IMG/VR virus record: IMGVR_UViG_2579778894_000023
Location: 1-21,416 of that record
Length of the DNA: 21,416 bases
Reading direction: 5' to 3' (one strand)
DNA from: a virus
Lineage: Duplodnaviria > Heunggongvirae > Uroviricota > Caudoviricetes
The translations under genes were made by a program, and so were the position numbers. Positions within the stretch are counted from its first letter, which is position 1; each line of letters opens with the position of its first letter. The notes beneath the pieces are model-generated. The model was given only the letters and a program-made list of their open reading frames with translations, did not search any database and was not told the DNA's origin. Of this stretch, positions 2,169-18,433 are shown piece by piece.

Positions 2169-2357
2169 TCACGAGGACAGAAGTTTCTCGCAATTAAAAT
2201 TTATCAGCTTTACTTTCTGCTCTCTGGAAACGCCTGCTTCTTTTTTCCCTGAGAGCATTTTTTCGCATTCTGATTTCGTTAATTTAGATTTTGAATATCT
2301 TGTCCAGTTAGTAGGAGTGCCACCTTCCTTTTCAATAGTGGCAGTAATTTTATACAT
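2169..2357 (-). CDS. Small hypothetical protein (YdaC-like position in Rac-type prophages)
   Basis: Start chosen at internal ATG 2357 (MYKITATIEKEGG...) because of SD AATGGAGGTG 5 nt upstream and a 2-nt gap after the ralR stop; the longer ORF start at 2426 would overlap ralR. Confidence 0.55.
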   Translation of the reverse strand: MYKITATIEKEGGTPTNWTRYSKSKLTKSECEKMLSGKKEAGVSREQKVKLINFNCEKLLSS

Positions 2358-2607: not shown

Positions 2608-3660
2608 TCAGGAGCCGATATATTCTGGTTTCATATCTGTCAGTGTCGTTTTATACGCCTCATATAATTCTCCCAGATGTGGTCGTGCAGCATTCAGCGT
2701 ATTTTCCAGAGCAATAAATTTTTGTTCTGCTTCTGGATCACCTGATGAAGGCAGGTCATTTATCATCGTCTCAATACGGGCAATAGCATTGAGACGGTGA
2801 TGACGCTGAACCACTTTTCCTTTAAGTTCTGTGTAGAGAGCGCCAAGTGTATTTTTATGATCTTCCACTTCCTGGCGAAGTGATGTTGTTTCTCCGGTGC
2901 TTTGTGCCTGCTCAATACGTTCACGGAAAGCACTGATCCAGTTTTCCCCGGCATCCTGCTCAATAATTGTTGTTTCACGTTCCGCACGGCAGGCGGATGT
3001 ATTTTTATGTTCCTGAACCGGATTAATGATTTTTTCCTGTGGTTCGTCCAGTTCGTCCCGGGTGTGCACTCCAAGAATCACTTCAGGGCAATAAAGGCGC
3101 GCCCAGCGTTTCAGTGCCAGATAGGCAAGCTGCTGGCGAGGATCATCGGCCCATAACGTTGAGTTACGTGTTCTGGCCTGTGCCAGAAGTAACTCCAGTA
3201 CGCGTGGCTTGCTCTCTCCGCGTAGTGTTGCCTGGACGCGAACTCCGATCCCGTTTTCATCGGCCAGCTTCCAGCTAGGTACACGATATTCTTTCCCCTT
3301 GTCGTTCTTCCTGATTTCAAATTTCCCGATAATTTTTTCCCACGGCCCGAACCAGTCATATTCAATACGCCCGGTTAGCGGCCCACGAGTACTGATTACG
3401 GCATTAACCAGTTGCGCTTCATATCCGAGCATACCATTCACAACGAAAGTTTTCTGAGCTACTGCGTAAGGGTTCATTTGCCACTGCATCGCCTGCATGG
3501 TGATGGCCATGCAGTCTGATGGATTTCCCCGGAGGTGTTCCGGTACAGTAGCCATGCCGGAAGCCATTACCTGGGAAAATGTCTGAATTGCAGCCAGGGA
3601 CTGAGGGCTGAAAACCGCAACATTAGAGTTAATATTTTCTTGTTGAGTTAATTCGTTCAT
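2608..3660 (-). CDS. Phage single-strand annealing protein, RecT-family-like recombinase
   Basis: 350 aa immediately downstream of the RecE-like exonuclease (stop/start 12 nt apart, SD GAGGAAGG). The segment LAYLALKRWARLYCPEV resembles the conserved RecT helix (AIRRLFKYLP). Family call rests on synteny plus this motif. Confidence 0.6.
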   Translation of the reverse strand: MNELTQQENINSNVAVFSPQSLAAIQTFSQVMASGMATVPEHLRGNPSDCMAITMQAMQWQMNPYAVAQKTFVVNGMLGYEAQLVNAVISTRGPLTGRIEYDWFGPWEKIIGKFEIRKNDKGKEYRVPSWKLADENGIGVRVQATLRGESKPRVLELLLAQARTRNSTLWADDPRQQLAYLALKRWARLYCPEVILGVHTRDELDEPQEKIINPVQEHKNTSACRAERETTIIEQDAGENWISAFRERIEQAQSTGETTSLRQEVEDHKNTLGALYTELKGKVVQRHHRLNAIARIETMINDLPSSGDPEAEQKFIALENTLNAARPHLGELYEAYKTTLTDMKPEYIGS

Positions 3661-3671
3661 TGTGTCCTTCC

Positions 3672-6600
3672 TCAGATGCTCAGTGCTTCAAGACGACGAA
3701 GATCAAAGTCGTTTAATTCGTCGGTATAACTTTCGGTAATCGGTGCTGGCCAGTTGTTTGTCTCCAGAGCTTCGTTTATCTGTCGTAGTGTCCGGCGATA
3801 TTCCTGTCGACCAAGTTCCAGGAGTTCCTGCGAGGCTTCCACGACGGCCACCCAGTGATAGCCAGCATCTTTGTTGACGAAGATCCAGAAAAATTTGTCC
3901 AGGTTTGCCACATCGCAATACATTGCTGCGCTGAGGTGATAATCACGTTCAATAATTTCACGGTGCAGGCGATCTTTCAGTCGTTCCTGTCGCACATAAC
4001 CGAGGCTGACTGACTTCACGTCGGCGCAAATGCTTTCGTATGGCAGCCGGATTTCGATATCAGGACGGACCCTGATTTCCAGCCCGGTTTCTTCATCAAA
4101 CCCGAAATAGCTGATTTCAGATTTGCGATCCGGGTGGTTGAGTAGCCTTGCTGCATCAGTATTGTTTTGCAGTGCTGCGTGAATATTTTTTGCCTGTTCA
4201 TACATATCCGGACTGATAAACGTTTTCCCGGCGTTTTCTTCTTGCTGGCGTTTTTGCCAGTCCTCCAGTGTTACCAGTTCCGGGCGAATTTTCCGGGCGA
4301 TTTCGGTTAATTGCTCTTTTGTGCCACTGATGTTGTAAGGCAAAGATTTAGCACGTTCTTTTTTTGCCAGTTCTGGATCTACAGTTTCAATTTGCTCCAG
4401 GAGCTGCTCTCGTGTTCCACTGGCTTTCAGCAGAGGAGGGAGGCTTGCGTTGTATTCTTTAATACAGGCTTTCATTGCTGATGCTGTGTGTTTTTCCCCC
4501 TCAGGAATACGCCGGAATTCCTCCGGAAGCGAACCGTAAAGGATGCCTGTTTCTTCGGCCCCGGCACTTACCGACAGTGGCTGTATAAGAGTGCTGTTGT
4601 AGCTTTCGATCCACTCTTTCATCTGCTCTGGTGTCATCAGTGCTGGCAGACTGGCATTGTGTTTTTTAATGATGGCGATCAGTTCGTTAGAAGTAGTAAC
4701 CACATATTCAGGAACCGGTACCGGGATGGCATACTCATCAGCGAATTTATCCGTTTCCAGAACATAGCTGTGAATAATCCGCCCACGCAGCAATGCATCA
4801 CTTTCCTCGCCCGGAATAGTTCCGGCAATGTGCCGTCCGTGGTAATACATCAGGCTGATGCGGGCATCCTTCAGCATTGTGCTGCTTATTCCGTTGGCGG
4901 AGTGATAAACCTCGTTCGGGAGGTTTTCATAGCGGCCAGGCTCGAAATATGACGGCCACATGATTTCAGTTACTACAGGTGCTGTCGTTTCACCAGCTTC
5001 ATCACTGCAATCGCAATGCGGATTGCTGCCAGCGTTCTCCTTGTGCGGATGTTCAGCACCTTCCATTTCCTCCAGACCTTTTTCCTGATATTCATTCTGA
5101 TTTTCTTCATTAAAGGTTTTCTGATACGTTGCGTCGCCCATCACCGCGCCACAGTCAGGACAGTTGCCGCCGCCAGCCTTACCGCAGGCGGTGCAAACTT
5201 TCTCCGTTTCCTGTTGTTGCACTACTGGCTCAGGCTGTTTCGTTTCTGGCTCGTTTTGTTGCGTATTTGGGTCGTTCTGTTCCGTTTCTGGCTGATTCTG
5301 GTACACAGAATCGCGGGTCTGGATCCCCTTAACCCATTTCGGATCATTCGGGTCGCTAATCCCTTCAACAAATTCTCCGCGAGAGGCAGCCAGTAATTTG
5401 TCTGCATCGACAGGATTTTTGGGCGGAATGTTTTTCCGGGCTTCATAGAGTTCTGCCCGCAGTTTCTGATATTTCGCATCAACAGAATTTACCTGTGACT
5501 GAGCATCCAGCGGCTGCGTGTCCTGATGATGTTCAGTTGCATCCGGTTCCACTGTTTCAGCCGTTGCCTGTTCATCTGCCATTGCGCAAGATGGTTGCAG
5601 TTTTTCTTCATCATCCTGTTTTTCTTCTTCTGTTACACGCTGCGGCATCGGGGCAGAGGAACGACCGCAGGCAATATCCACGATTTCTTGATCAGGGGTG
5701 GCATGATCAGTTTCAGTCAGTACTTTGTTAAGATATTCAGTGACGTGTGCGGGGATAACCTCGATCCCAATTGGTGCTTCTTTTACGGACGCAACCACGA
5801 TGGCGCGGGAATAATCCAGCCCGCCAGGCATGGTGATGAATTTGTCGCGGAAAACAGAAAAGGGCGGTTTATTTTCAGCGATAATTTCCTCGACACGTTT
5901 AGCGTGTGCCGGATGAAGGTTATAAATGTCCACGTCCATTGAACGAGCCAGTACGCCAGTGGCTACGTCGCGCGCCAGTGACGTCAGATCGTGAACGAAA
6001 CCTTCGCCGCGATCGGTGAGGTTCCCGCCGCCAGCATTAGCGCCGGAAGCCGTGCGCGTGATGCGTGAAACACGATTTCCTTTCATCCACTCTTTTGTCA
6101 GCAGACCGCGATCGGTGTAGTCTGCGTCCAGGTATGCTTCGAAAAAAGCAGTCATCAGCCCCAGGCTTGAATTGCCTGGATTAGGGAAAACTCTGTCAGT
6201 ATCACGCACCAGTTTGTGGAGATCGCGAATTTCCAACGGGTCGAGCAGGCTGGTTTTGTGGGAAACAGCCAGGGCAGTAACAGCTGGTAGTTCTTCAGCT
6301 CGTGCAATGTGTAATGCCTGTAGTCCGTCGCGTGAAACGTGCGTTACCGGTTTTTCGCTGCCGTGTTGAGCAAGCCAGCGAATGGGCAGCTCCTGACCGG
6401 AAATCGGGAGTAGCATATTCTCCTCAATCTCCGTCATGTCTTCGCCATTAACATTGGTATTGTCAGTGCTGGCTGGTTTGTCCTGCGCAGAGGATGAGGG
6501 CGCGATAAATACCATTGTGATGCCATCTTCCCCGCCTTTTTCGTAACGGTTGCAGAATTCCGTATCAAATACGCCTTCTGGTGGAAGGTCATCAACAACG

Positions 6601-6800
6601 GGCAAGTTGACGCGAACAGGTTTTTTAAAGTCATCTTCATCGTAGCCAGCATCGTCAATCGCAACAGCACCACGGGAGATGGCAATGGATAATTTTTTCG
6701 CTTCAGCCCAGTAGAAACCGCCTTTAATACCGAGACGTTTTCTTACTTTGTCATTTTTTGCTTCGTAATACAGTGGGTAAACTTGTTTATCGGTGCTCAT
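3672..6800 (-). CDS. recE: Exodeoxyribonuclease VIII (RecE-like), 1042 aa, with an extra repeat-containing insertion in the nuclease domain
   Basis: The N-terminal two thirds align with recalled E. coli RecE ([24 protein letters not shown]..., [16 protein letters not shown] zinc ribbon). The C-terminal PD-(D/E)xK region (IRVRPD...DVK) is diverged and carries a ~150-aa insertion. Confidence 0.9.
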
Positions 6801-6870
6801 TGTTTTTTAACCTCAACTCAGATTAAAATTAATGCGAGTGATGAATAAATGTCCCAGGTTCTTCACTCAG

Positions 6871-6900
6871 GCCTGCACAGTGTGCAGGCTTTCTTTTTTT
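6871..6900 (+). terminator. Orphan rho-independent terminator on the non-coding strand between racC and recE
   Basis: Perfect palindrome gcctgca-cagtg-tgcaggc followed by tttcttttttt on the plus strand; the minus strand has no U-tract after the hairpin. Confidence 0.5.
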
Positions 6901-6928
6901 CAGATTTCACCTTTTAATTTCATTGCAA

Positions 6929-7174
6929 TCAGAGTTGCCAGAAATTCGGCTTTTTTTCTGCGGGCAGATTCTTTCCTGTGTGCACCAGACACATTTTTTT
7001 AACACCATCGTTAAGTGTTTTAACGTTGCCTGATGGACCGTCGATATCAACCACAGTGAATGGGGTTTCTTTATTTTCTGTCTTAATCACGTAGCCAATA
7101 CGCTTTCCTTCCAGGGTAACTTCGTGAACAATGTTATCAGTAGTAACAACAGTGGCTTCATAACTGGTAATCAT
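6929..7174 (-). CDS. racC: RacC-like protein
   Basis: 81 aa from ATG 7174 (MITSYEATVVTTDNIVHEVTLEGKRIGYVIKTENKETPFTVVDIDGPSGNVKTL...), matching recalled Rac RacC; SD AAGGAG 6 nt upstream. Confidence 0.8.
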   Translation of the reverse strand: MITSYEATVVTTDNIVHEVTLEGKRIGYVIKTENKETPFTVVDIDGPSGNVKTLNDGVKKMCLVHTGKNLPAEKKPNFWQL

Positions 7175-7248
7175 GTTTTTCTCCTTAATTAAGGTTGAGC
7201 GAATCCCTGCCATTGCTGGCATAAATTCAGTTTCGGATAGTCAGTTAA

Positions 7249-7419
7249 TTAAAGTTCGTGTGCCATCTGGTCTTTTTCGGCACAGATTTCACTACAATAT
7301 TTTTTCATTTCCGTCGTTGGTATAACTCCACGCATGAAATGAAGTGGTCTTGTAATGATTTTGCTTTCTTCAATTTCTTTATTGCAAAGGTGATAAGCAC
7401 ATTTTATTTTCTTAGTCAT
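7249..7419 (-). CDS. ydaE: YdaE-like small zinc-binding protein
   Basis: 56-aa ORF translated by hand ([56 protein letters not shown]); below the ORF-track size cutoff. Start overlaps the kilR stop (ATGGTAATGA). Confidence 0.7.
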   Translation of the reverse strand: MTKKIKCAYHLCNKEIEESKIITRPLHFMRGVIPTTEMKKYCSEICAEKDQMAHEL

Positions 7420-7640: not shown

Positions 7641-8048
7641 AATTATCTCCATTTTTACAAATGAATTTTGTCGATGCGGTGCCTGGTGCCTCCAGGTGAC
7701 GTTAACCAGTTAACAATTAACGCCGGATAATCCACCCATAACACTGATGCTTTTAACTGTGCCGCGTGCGCTTAGCCGCATTCACCGCATCACAAAATTC
7801 ACTTTAAAAAGGGGCGGCAGGGCAGCCACGGAGTAGAACTGATGCCGCCAAAGACTACACATAGCAATGTCGTTATTTACAACCGGAGGCGCACTCCCAC
7901 CATTTAAATTTAACAGACAAGACCGACTCTTTATGGATACCGGAAATGCGCCTTCGTGTTGTGCCCGGTTTTATTTCACCACCTCCGGGCTTTGGTGGCC
8001 TCGGCTATACCCCTACAGCAAGAATATTGAATTAATCCAATAAATGGT

Positions 8049-8201
8049 TTAGCTGGTATTTTTGGCAAGCCAGCGACGTGCGCCAGCTTCGGTTTTAAAC
8101 GATTTGCTTTTGGTATACGTCATGGCGGTGAATGTGCCGTCCTGATTGGGAAACACGCCACATACCAGAGATTCGTTGTTGCCAAGATCGATAGTATCCA
8201 T
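8049..8201 (-). CDS. ydaG: YdaG-like small protein
   Basis: 50 aa from ATG 8201 (MDTIDLGNNESLVCGVFPNQDGTFTAMTYTKSKSFKTEAGARRWLAKNTS); SD GAGGT 4 nt upstream; first gene downstream of the inferred PL. The longer track ORF begins at a TTG. Confidence 0.6.
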   Translation of the reverse strand: MDTIDLGNNESLVCGVFPNQDGTFTAMTYTKSKSFKTEAGARRWLAKNTS

Positions 8202-8381
8202 GTTGACCTCATTTCCCCTTAACGCCGGGTGGCGGAACGTTTTATCTACTGCGCTTTGTATCAATCAACAACTGCCGTCATGTTCGTATGCCTCAGGCTG
8301 GCTACTTAGCCCTGTTCAGTGGCTGGATAACTCGAGGTATTGTCCTGCCGTTCTCTGGTAGGGCGTTGTTTGGATATGCTT

Positions 8382-14961: not shown

Positions 14962-15184
14962 GAAGGAAACAAAACAGAAACAACAATTGCCGTTATCTGT
15001 TGTTACCATGGCAAGTAAACGTATCTCAGGCGAGCGCATTGCGCCGTTCTGACGCAGATAAATTAGCCTGGATAGATGGTGCTGGCAATAAAAAATAGCG
15101 TTTTCTTATCGGTGTCGGTAAGATTGCTGCGGGTGCTTGAGGCTGTCTGCCTCGGGCATGCCACTGTAAGGCAGACAGAGAAAA

Positions 15185-15285
15185 GCCCCAGTTAACATTA
15201 CGCGTCCTGCAAGACGCTTAACATTAATCTGAGGCCATATCTATGCGACACATAGAGATTAGCCTCTTACGGACCGAAAGGTCAA
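15185..15285 (-). ncRNA. Candidate sok-like antisense RNA and its promoter (approximate)
   Basis: Minus strand reads TTGACC (15285-15280), 18-bp spacer, TAATCT (15261-15256); predicted start ~15249 would make an RNA complementary to the mok-like start region. 3' end not defined. Confidence 0.25.
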
Positions 15286-15302
15286 GGAGAAGCAGGCTAT
15301 GA
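15243..15302 (+). CDS. Candidate mok-like leader ORF (19 codons) coupled to hok
   Basis: ATG 15243 lies inside the hairpin ctatg-cgaca-catag; ORF MRHIEISLLRTERSRRSRL ends in TGA overlapping the hok ATG (cTATGAag). Confidence 0.3.
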   Translation: MRHIEISLLRTERSRRSRL

Positions 15303-17454: not shown

Positions 17455-17479
17455 CTCAATCTGTTATCCGGGGCTATAT
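17450..17479 (+). promoter_or_regulatory. Late promoter PR'-like
   Basis: TTGACT (17450-55), 18-bp spacer, TATATT (17474-79), overlapping the end of the Q gene. Confidence 0.55.
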
Positions 17480-17540
17480 TCCTCACGCGCCAGCAAAATC
17501 TGGCGTCGGGATTAGGAACCCCGGATAGAGACCGCGACAG

Positions 17541-17566
17541 ACACACGCCGCGAGCGTGTTTTTTAT
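17541..17566 (+). terminator. tR'-like terminator of the short late leader RNA
   Basis: acacgc-cgcga-gcgtgt followed by tttttt, ~80 nt after the predicted PR' start. Confidence 0.65.
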
Positions 17567-17727
17567 TGTCGTATGCACGCGCACATCTGAATTATGGTGG
17601 GGCGTATGGGGGAGCTGAAAAGCTCGCCGGTTGGTTTCCCGGTAGTTCCTAACCCTGTACGTCTCACCACCCGATGATTAGGAACCTGACGGTGGTGATG
17701 GTTTAGAAACCACCAGAGGGCGTCATT

Positions 17728-18404: not shown

Positions 18405-18433
18405 AACCCGCCATTGAGCGGGTTTTGTTGTTT
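18405..18433 (+). terminator. Rho-independent terminator after the ORF6N gene
   Basis: aacccgc-cattga-gcgggtt followed by ttgttgttt. Confidence 0.6.

Follow-up and report, generated by a model that had tools for sequence, protein, structure and literature searches.

The closest described counterparts of the locus analysed here are antisense RNAs of phages, prophages and plasmids. The OOP RNA of phage lambda is a 77-nt antisense RNA to cII, and the sar RNA of phage P22 is a 68-69-nt antisense RNA of the arc-ant intercistronic region. RalA (RF02694), the partner of RalR, is a plus-strand sRNA of 179 nt that forms its own Rfam family, is directed against a leftward gene and serves as the antitoxin to a DNase toxin. 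A further pair of systems, CopA/tap/repA of plasmid R1 and Sok/mok/hok, is known for antisense control through a coupled leader ORF.

We analysed a stretch of 21,416 nt (IMG/VR virus record IMGVR_UViG_2579778894_000023, positions 1 to 21,416; hereafter the window). The window is a Rac-type prophage in which racC lies just upstream of recE on the same strand, with ydaE and kil beyond. On the strand opposite to the racC-recE spacer we predict a small antisense RNA of ~61 nt (6836-6896, plus strand). It is most likely a prophage cis-antisense small RNA, that is, an RNA of a known sort and no new kind of system, whose 3' end has already been published for K-12.

The likeness to OOP is considerable. 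Both would be short constitutive RNAs of lambdoid prophages with their own promoter (here predicted) and a strong intrinsic terminator, both are directed against the junction of two genes in an early operon, and action is expected via a perfect duplex. Whereas OOP extends into the 3' end of the gene before it, the RNA described here overlaps racC little if at all; it is located in the leftward recombination operon, mainly over the leader of the next gene, and has no similarity to OOP in sequence or in Rfam. With sar it shares its size and its place as a small antisense RNA in the intercistronic spacer of a phage operon, as well as a promoter (here predicted) located within the translation-initiation region that belongs to the operon of the downstream gene. 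In contrast to sar, which covers the ribosome-binding site of ant, the predicted RNA starts 36 nt upstream of the recE AUG, and it is the candidate promoter itself that occupies the recE SD and AUG. RalA belongs to the same prophage and opposes a leftward gene of the same operon; the RNA described here differs from it in having neither a family nor an identifiable toxin partner. The geometry of the arrangement may also resemble CopA/tap/repA and Sok/mok/hok, in that a predicted local hairpin would take up the SD of the main gene, an upstream ORF ends in this hairpin or on the SD, and the antisense RNA would cover the start of this ORF. The SD hairpin is weak here, however, and the mini-ORF is possibly due to chance.

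An intrinsic terminator in the racC-recE spacer

The recE gene (3672-6800, minus strand) encodes a protein of 1042 aa with an Exonuc_VIII and a PDDEXK-like domain. The start codon, CAT on the plus strand, occupies 6798-6800; the SD, which reads GAGG on the minus strand, is found at 6811-6814. The racC gene (6929-7174, minus strand) contains a T-run at 6952-6958 that consists of seven T in the window; the 159 copies fetched for comparison have eight T in 136 cases, seven in 16, nine in 5 and four in 2. With seven instead of eight T, the window's racC has lost its frame close to the 3' end; it terminates at 6929, not at 6900, where the intact frame would end. The racC-recE spacer comprises 100 nt.

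The plus strand of this spacer carries a hairpin (6869-6891) whose core stem, GCCTGCA-CAGTG-TGCAGGC, can be read off the sequence (arms 6871-6877 and 6883-6889, loop 6878-6882); the core inverted repeat is extendable to 10 pairs. Directly 3' of the stem follows the T-run TTTCTTTTTTT (6890-6900, plus strand), whose last T also serves as the opening base of TCA (6900-6902), the ancestral racC stop codon. The hairpin thus combines the G+C-rich stem, the short loop and the U-rich tract 3' of the stem by which intrinsic terminators are recognised, and a standard scan calls it as a 10-pair stem that includes 6 G-C pairs and closes on a 3-nt loop. A stricter scan, in which a site needed 7 or more perfect pairs, 5 or more G-C pairs and a minimum of 7 T among the 10 bases that follow, returns four sites on both strands of the 21-kb window, against 0.02 +/- 0.14 expected from 100 dinucleotide shuffles; the other three are located at 8477-8459 (minus strand), 14956-14936 (minus strand) and 18405-18424 (plus strand).

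The hairpin is a working, conserved intrinsic terminator of the plus strand. In this respect the original prediction, which described it as a textbook case, is borne out alike by the strict scan, by the RNA 3' end known from K-12 and by the conserved helix. The additional remark that the terminator opposes every gene within 6 kb was overstated, as the plus strand carries the RalA gene (2173-2351) as well as a CDS at ~8170-8364 of the window, annotated in a near-identical genome and ~1.3 kb downstream of the terminator.

RNA 3' end in the K-12 orthologue

The Rac prophage of E. coli K-12 MG1655 has the same arrangement, with a hairpin GCCTGCG-CCATA-CGCAGGC at 1417461-1417479 and the hexamer TAAAAT at 1417410-1417415. 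A published Term-seq data set reports a plus-strand 3' end at 1417486 (Adams et al. 2021, eLife 10:e62438, Supplementary file 1), 7 nt past the stem and inside the T-run. The end is classed as 'antisense, racC'; 185,664 reads support it in LB at OD 0.4 and 146,140 in a second condition sheet (Adams et al. 2021, eLife 10:e62438); the coordinate is counted three times in this file of three condition sheets, with read values taken from two of them. For scale, the same source gives 66,698 reads for SokC, 103,354 for the FtsO region and 6,222 for SgrS on the same strand and sheet. The text of Adams et al. 2021 does not discuss the 3' end at 1417486, and no coordinate beginning with 14174 occurs in three other supplementary files of that study, including the table of Rho termination (file 2).

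In vivo, the RNA of the K-12 allele accordingly ends a few nt into the U-tract and has no Rho signature: an abundant plus-strand RNA ends at the terminator in the K-12 orthologue. The original prediction had made its case depend on a plus-strand transcript ending at ~6900, and the K-12 allele has an RNA that ends there. This 3' end could also be what protection by the hairpin has left of a longer antisense transcript. Among the rows listed of the LB OD 0.4 sheet there is no other plus-strand 3' end between 1411575 and 1417486.

A side observation concerns RalA, whose K-12 end is located at 1413734. It has no plus-strand 3' end among the LB OD 0.4 rows listed for 1411575-1417486, and the unnamed RNA, with its 185,664 reads, appears far more abundant than RalA under this condition.

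Two alleles and the strand of the conserved helix

We compared 165 copies of the element, obtained from two IMG/VR anchor searches and from genome loci. These copies form two deep alleles, a K-12 type and a window type. The K-12-type element is found in 1,594 and the window-type element in 268 of 5,426 complete E. coli genomes (1,862 in total), and no ncRNA is annotated at the matches in these 1,862 genomes or in NC_000913.3. Strain O55:H7 CB9615 is one carrier of the window type, with a match of 100%. RacC itself is restricted to Escherichia and Shigella in a one-genome-per-species GTDB set, with matches in 6 phage records. Owing to this narrow range, the covariation described in the following draws on two deep alleles and their minor variants within one genus.

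The 9-pair helix of the terminator is paired in 243 of 243 cells, taken over 27 distinct variants. Two helix pairs are compensatory between the alleles (A-U/U-A and A-U/G-C). Three helix pairs show G-U states, and the same changes correspond to A-C mismatches on the minus strand. One-sided stem transitions within an allele keep the pairing of the plus strand in 5 of 5 cases (sign test, p ~0.03, a small sample). Since the G-U pairs and the one-sided transitions pair only if the plus strand is the RNA, we conclude that the helix is conserved as plus-strand RNA. The possibility that the hairpin is a relic, which had been left open initially, is thereby answered: the compensatory and plus-strand-only wobble changes, together with the 3' end found in vivo, identify it as no relic. 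The T-run consists of 6-8 T in most loci, and two variants carry CTTTTTCCC.

Upstream of the terminator, folding predicts a 5' stem-loop (GAGUGA.GAAU / GUUC.UCACUC with an 11-nt loop; 6836-6868, plus strand). Two C-to-T changes within an allele retain G-U pairs in this stem. MAFFT leaves the 5' stems of the two alleles out of register, and we therefore make no claim of covariation for the 5' stem.

Variation is highest in the terminator loop and in the 6 nt that follow the putative -10. In the transcribed spacer, 12 of the 39 window bases match between the alleles (~31%). The alleles agree in every base of a 38-nt block (window 6793-6830), in which the recE start, its SD and the two promoter hexamers are located, and they are almost the same over the final ~60 nt of racC.

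We note two further features of this region. Among near-identical copies the terminator loop is found in both orientations, namely CAGTG/CACTG and CCATA/TATGG (K-12 1417468-1417472); as far as the sequences tell, such a two-way loop is the signature of a loop inversion by template switching within the palindrome. The 38-nt block, in turn, is flanked by heavily diverged alleles on one side and by unalignable recE 5' ends on the other, and two loci (L163 and L164, at about 1700-1870) join a window-type spacer to a K-12-type recE 5' end. These junctions identify the block as a recombination junction between modules.

Candidate promoter and predicted RNA

The proposed promoter consists of a putative -35 element TTGTTT (6800-6805, plus strand; 3 of 6 matches), which overlaps or abuts the recE start codon, and a putative -10 element TAAAAT (6824-6829, plus strand; 5 of 6 matches), separated by 18 nt. 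It is not called by a sigma-70 scan, because its -35 matches at only 3 of 6 positions. Candidates were ranked by an approximate position-weight score, whose hexamer frequencies are suited for ranking only. On this score TTGTTT-18-TAAAAT ranks 19th among 213,810 position/spacing combinations in the window, equivalent to about one equal site per 2.2 kb of strand. Among the plus-strand candidates in the 400-550 nt before the terminator (550 nt in K-12), it ranks first in K-12 and joint first in the window, where an equal score goes to a site of the recE 5' segment not shared with K-12; no other promoter candidate is common to both alleles. The putative -10 is invariant in both alleles and the putative -35 has a single variant (TTGCTT) among the 165 loci. 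This conservation is confounded, as the same 38-nt block carries the ribosome-binding site and the start codon of recE.

The positions between the -10 and the predicted +1 (6830-6835) are hypervariable, with substitutions as well as indels, and constraint returns where the 5' stem-loop begins. The pattern of variation fits a start near G6836 (G1417423 in K-12), which we adopt as the putative start site; the Cappable-seq supplement has no matching 5' end entry. What had been proposed originally is thus retained in part. The promoter is the best upstream candidate shared by the alleles, and the RNA would measure 61-64 nt against the ~65 nt noted earlier; its -35 is weak and the scan does not call it.

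The predicted RNA extends from this putative 5' end to the 3' end provided by K-12 Term-seq (6836-6896, plus strand, ~61 nt), and its K-12 orthologue would comprise ~64 nt (1417423-1417486, plus strand). Folding of 6836-6900 (65 nt) results in two adjacent hairpins with -26.8 kcal/mol (z = -4.6). The K-12 allele, despite its different sequence, also folds as a 5' stem-loop abutting the terminator (z = -3.9). The predicted RNA has perfect complementarity to the junction of racC and recE: within the recE leader it would pair with positions -36 to -96, and it would stop shortly before the racC stop codon. The earlier claim of an RNA antisense to the recE leader would hold for this interval and does not extend to the recE SD and AUG, which are left uncovered. 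As both are located outside the predicted RNA, a simple masking of the ribosome site is impossible.

The RNA has no counterpart in the resources that we consulted. No Rfam family reaches its gathering score in 6300-7400, in either a gathering or a permissive scan. No racC- or recE-named RNA occurs in the Hfq RIL-seq or Hfq CLASH tables, although the absence from RIL-seq is weak evidence, because RalA is missing there too. A size-selected small-RNA survey (Shinhara 2011) has no entry for the predicted RNA, and a search of the literature for racC or recE in connection with antisense, Hfq or small RNA, as well as for the hairpin sequence, found no description. Elsewhere in the window there is no complementarity of more than 10 nt, only chance 8-10-mers. 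With regard to the Hfq-dependent trans-acting sRNAs, we find no recovery in the interactomes, and the unpaired regions differ between the alleles. With regard to type I antitoxins, the opposite strand offers only a mini-ORF of 14-19 codons, which is non-hydrophobic and poorly conserved between the alleles.

Two candidate annotations were rejected. A match to OmrA-B (RF00079) at 6817-6896 scores 21 bits against a cut-off of 40 (E = 0.29) and is due to a similar terminator. A plus-strand ORF of 56 codons (6832-7002) begins before the predicted +1, crosses the terminator and has no counterpart in K-12.

Proposed function and alternative explanations

Silencing of racR derepresses racC, recE, recT and others together. 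A sense partner for the predicted RNA therefore exists, with racC and recE co-derepressed and the element located between the racC stop and the recE start. The silence of recE is already explained by RacR, which represses the whole leftward operon, such that RacR and not the RNA is to be regarded as primary.

We consider the element rather probably an independent, unannotated sRNA gene in the racC-recE spacer, opposite to the early-left operon, whose product likely acts as a constitutive cis-antisense damper in the lysogen. We infer the start site and the function of this sRNA, and with them any regulatory effect on recE, along the following lines. A putative sigma-70-type promoter would overlie the start and the ribosome-binding site of recE and point away from the gene; transcription would start near G6836, and the RNA would form the 5' stem-loop (6836-6868) and stop at ~6896 at the terminator, by the racC stop codon. 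Produced constitutively in the lysogen, the RNA would pair perfectly with the racC-recE junction of leaky leftward transcripts. The resulting duplex may mark the leftward transcript for duplex-dependent cleavage, with decay of its recE-proximal part much as OOP brings about on cII, or else reduce the expression of recE and of the downstream genes recT, ralR, xis and int, and polymerase at the sRNA promoter would possibly add direct interference with leftward transcription. The antisense RNA would thus represent a second safety layer beneath the repression by RacR, similar to OOP or sar.

An unlikely alternative is that the terminator acts solely as an insulator, which stops pervasive or read-in transcription of the plus strand and involves neither a dedicated promoter nor an sRNA gene. 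The transcripts would stem from the AT-rich recE/recT region, from RalA read-through or from the host side, the terminator would shield racC, kil and the immunity region, and the Term-seq peak would represent the protected 3' end of heterogeneous longer transcripts. The strength and the conservation of the terminator are in line with this explanation, and the 5' end of the RNA is a predicted one, downstream of a promoter match that is modest and not called by the scan. recE itself contains further promoter-like sites, such as TTGTCA-15-TACAGT at 6748/6769, but these are not shared and belong to the recE 5' segment in which K-12 and the window differ. Read numbers above those of SokC and FtsO on the plus strand are moreover hard to achieve via spurious antisense initiation, and no further plus-strand 3' end is among the LB OD 0.4 rows listed for 1411575-1417486. 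Finally, both alleles keep the 5' stem-loop abutting the terminator, with constraint that begins ~7 nt past the -10, which speaks for a defined RNA rather than for the terminator by itself.

Slightly less probable again is a trans-acting sRNA that uses Hfq or ProQ to act on RNAs of the host or of other phages, as DicF or the prophage anti-sRNAs do, with an incidental position over the recE leader. The architecture of 5' stem-loop, terminator hairpin and long U tail is that of enterobacterial sRNAs, the RNA is abundant in K-12 with its coordinate present in three Term-seq condition sheets, and the window harbors other prophage sRNAs (RalA, DicF-like, sok, IsrK, C4). Against a role in trans stand the lack of a clear single-stranded seed common to both alleles, the absence of window complementarity beyond 10 nt outside the cis site, and the lack of an Rfam family at threshold (OmrA-B remains at 21 bits against 40), along with the missing racC- or recE-named RNA in Hfq RIL-seq and CLASH, a weak argument given that RIL-seq misses RalA as well. 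It is very improbable that the element functions on the minus strand or as DNA, be it as a stabiliser of the racC 3' end, a processing site or a protein-binding repeat, or that it is the leftover terminator of a lost plus-strand gene. The hairpin does form in minus-strand RNA too, right after the racC stop, and a palindromic protein-binding site likewise predicts symmetric changes of the inverted repeat. The G-U states at three positions and the 5 of 5 one-sided transitions, however, pair only on the plus strand, the T-run is found on the plus-strand side only, and the plus-strand RNA 3' end observed in vivo by Term-seq largely refutes such readings; a relic in particular is at odds with the maintenance of the element across two deep alleles and 1,862 genomes.

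Whichever function applies, E. coli K-12 is heavily annotated, yet an RNA with a strong plus-strand Term-seq 3' end has neither a gene name nor a family nor an annotation there. The element sits at the entrance to recET, the recombineering genes, and upstream of ralR, xis and int. It has been described that recET triggers retron defence and that RacC acts as a blocker (Bobonis et al.). If the RNA dampens leaky leftward transcripts, it would form a second layer of prophage silencing under RacR, with a bearing on basal RecET activity, on prophage stability and on the triggering of phage defence. If it has no effect in cis, it would still be a new and widespread prophage sRNA gene to be added to interactome maps.

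The recE leader and a possible coupled ORF

The recE leader may fold into a hairpin of its own (UUUUAAUCU / AGGUUAAAA, 9 bp; 6805-6828, minus strand) that pairs the recE SD. The hairpin is weak, with -7.4 kcal/mol including flanks and z = -1.8, and its sequence is invariant and hence beyond covariation. The leader also contains a mini-ORF of 17 codons (6813-6866, minus strand) that starts with GTG at 6866-6864 and whose stop codon TGA (6815-6813) overlaps the recE SD. In 38 of the 39 spacer variants, from both alleles, the mirrored terminator hairpin is followed after 1-4 nt by the start of a mini-ORF of 14-19 codons, whose stop falls in the 5' arm of the SD hairpin or is a TGA overlapping GAGG. 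The C-terminal frame is variable and one variant has no start codon. We note that the mini-ORF was noticed post hoc and that so short an ORF is not unlikely by chance.

The predicted antisense RNA would cover the start of the mini-ORF. By analogy with the coupled leader ORFs mentioned above, the RNA might form the antisense arm of a translational switch of recE, with the two alleles as specificity types, although we regard this as quite unlikely. In such a switch, translation of the mini-ORF would open the SD hairpin and the antisense RNA would block the start of the mini-ORF. The prophage would then silence recET only of those incoming phages that share its own allele type.

Other features of the prophage

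The recombination genes adjacent to the element differ from those of K-12. RecE of the window has residues 1 to ~600 in common with the K-12 and the M19 protein. The C-terminus (3672-~5000) consists of a different, larger PDDEXK-like nuclease domain (Pfam DUF3799) with an insertion of ~150 aa, and the adjacent RecT (2608-3660) has 350 aa versus 269 aa in K-12. Judged from the sequence, the recombinase module appears to have been swapped, with the N-terminus of RecE conserved ahead of it.

The integrase end of the prophage (463-607, 735-1811) adjoins the sRNA locus ryeA (SraC)/sdsR (RyeB); the prophage is therefore inserted there and not beside ttcA as in K-12. Several further RNAs of the window reach the Rfam gathering score, namely RalA (2173-2351, plus strand), sok (15131-15301) and a cluster of isrK, C4 and c4-a1b1 (17474-17674). 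In addition, an RNA of the DicF family (60.9 bits, cut-off 48) is located upstream of kil (7812-7863, minus strand). The DicF-like region is 83% identical to the K-12 KilS locus (L002 7406-7503), with a diverged KilS 3' hairpin, and on the basis of the family match and this identity KilS appears to be a relative of DicF.
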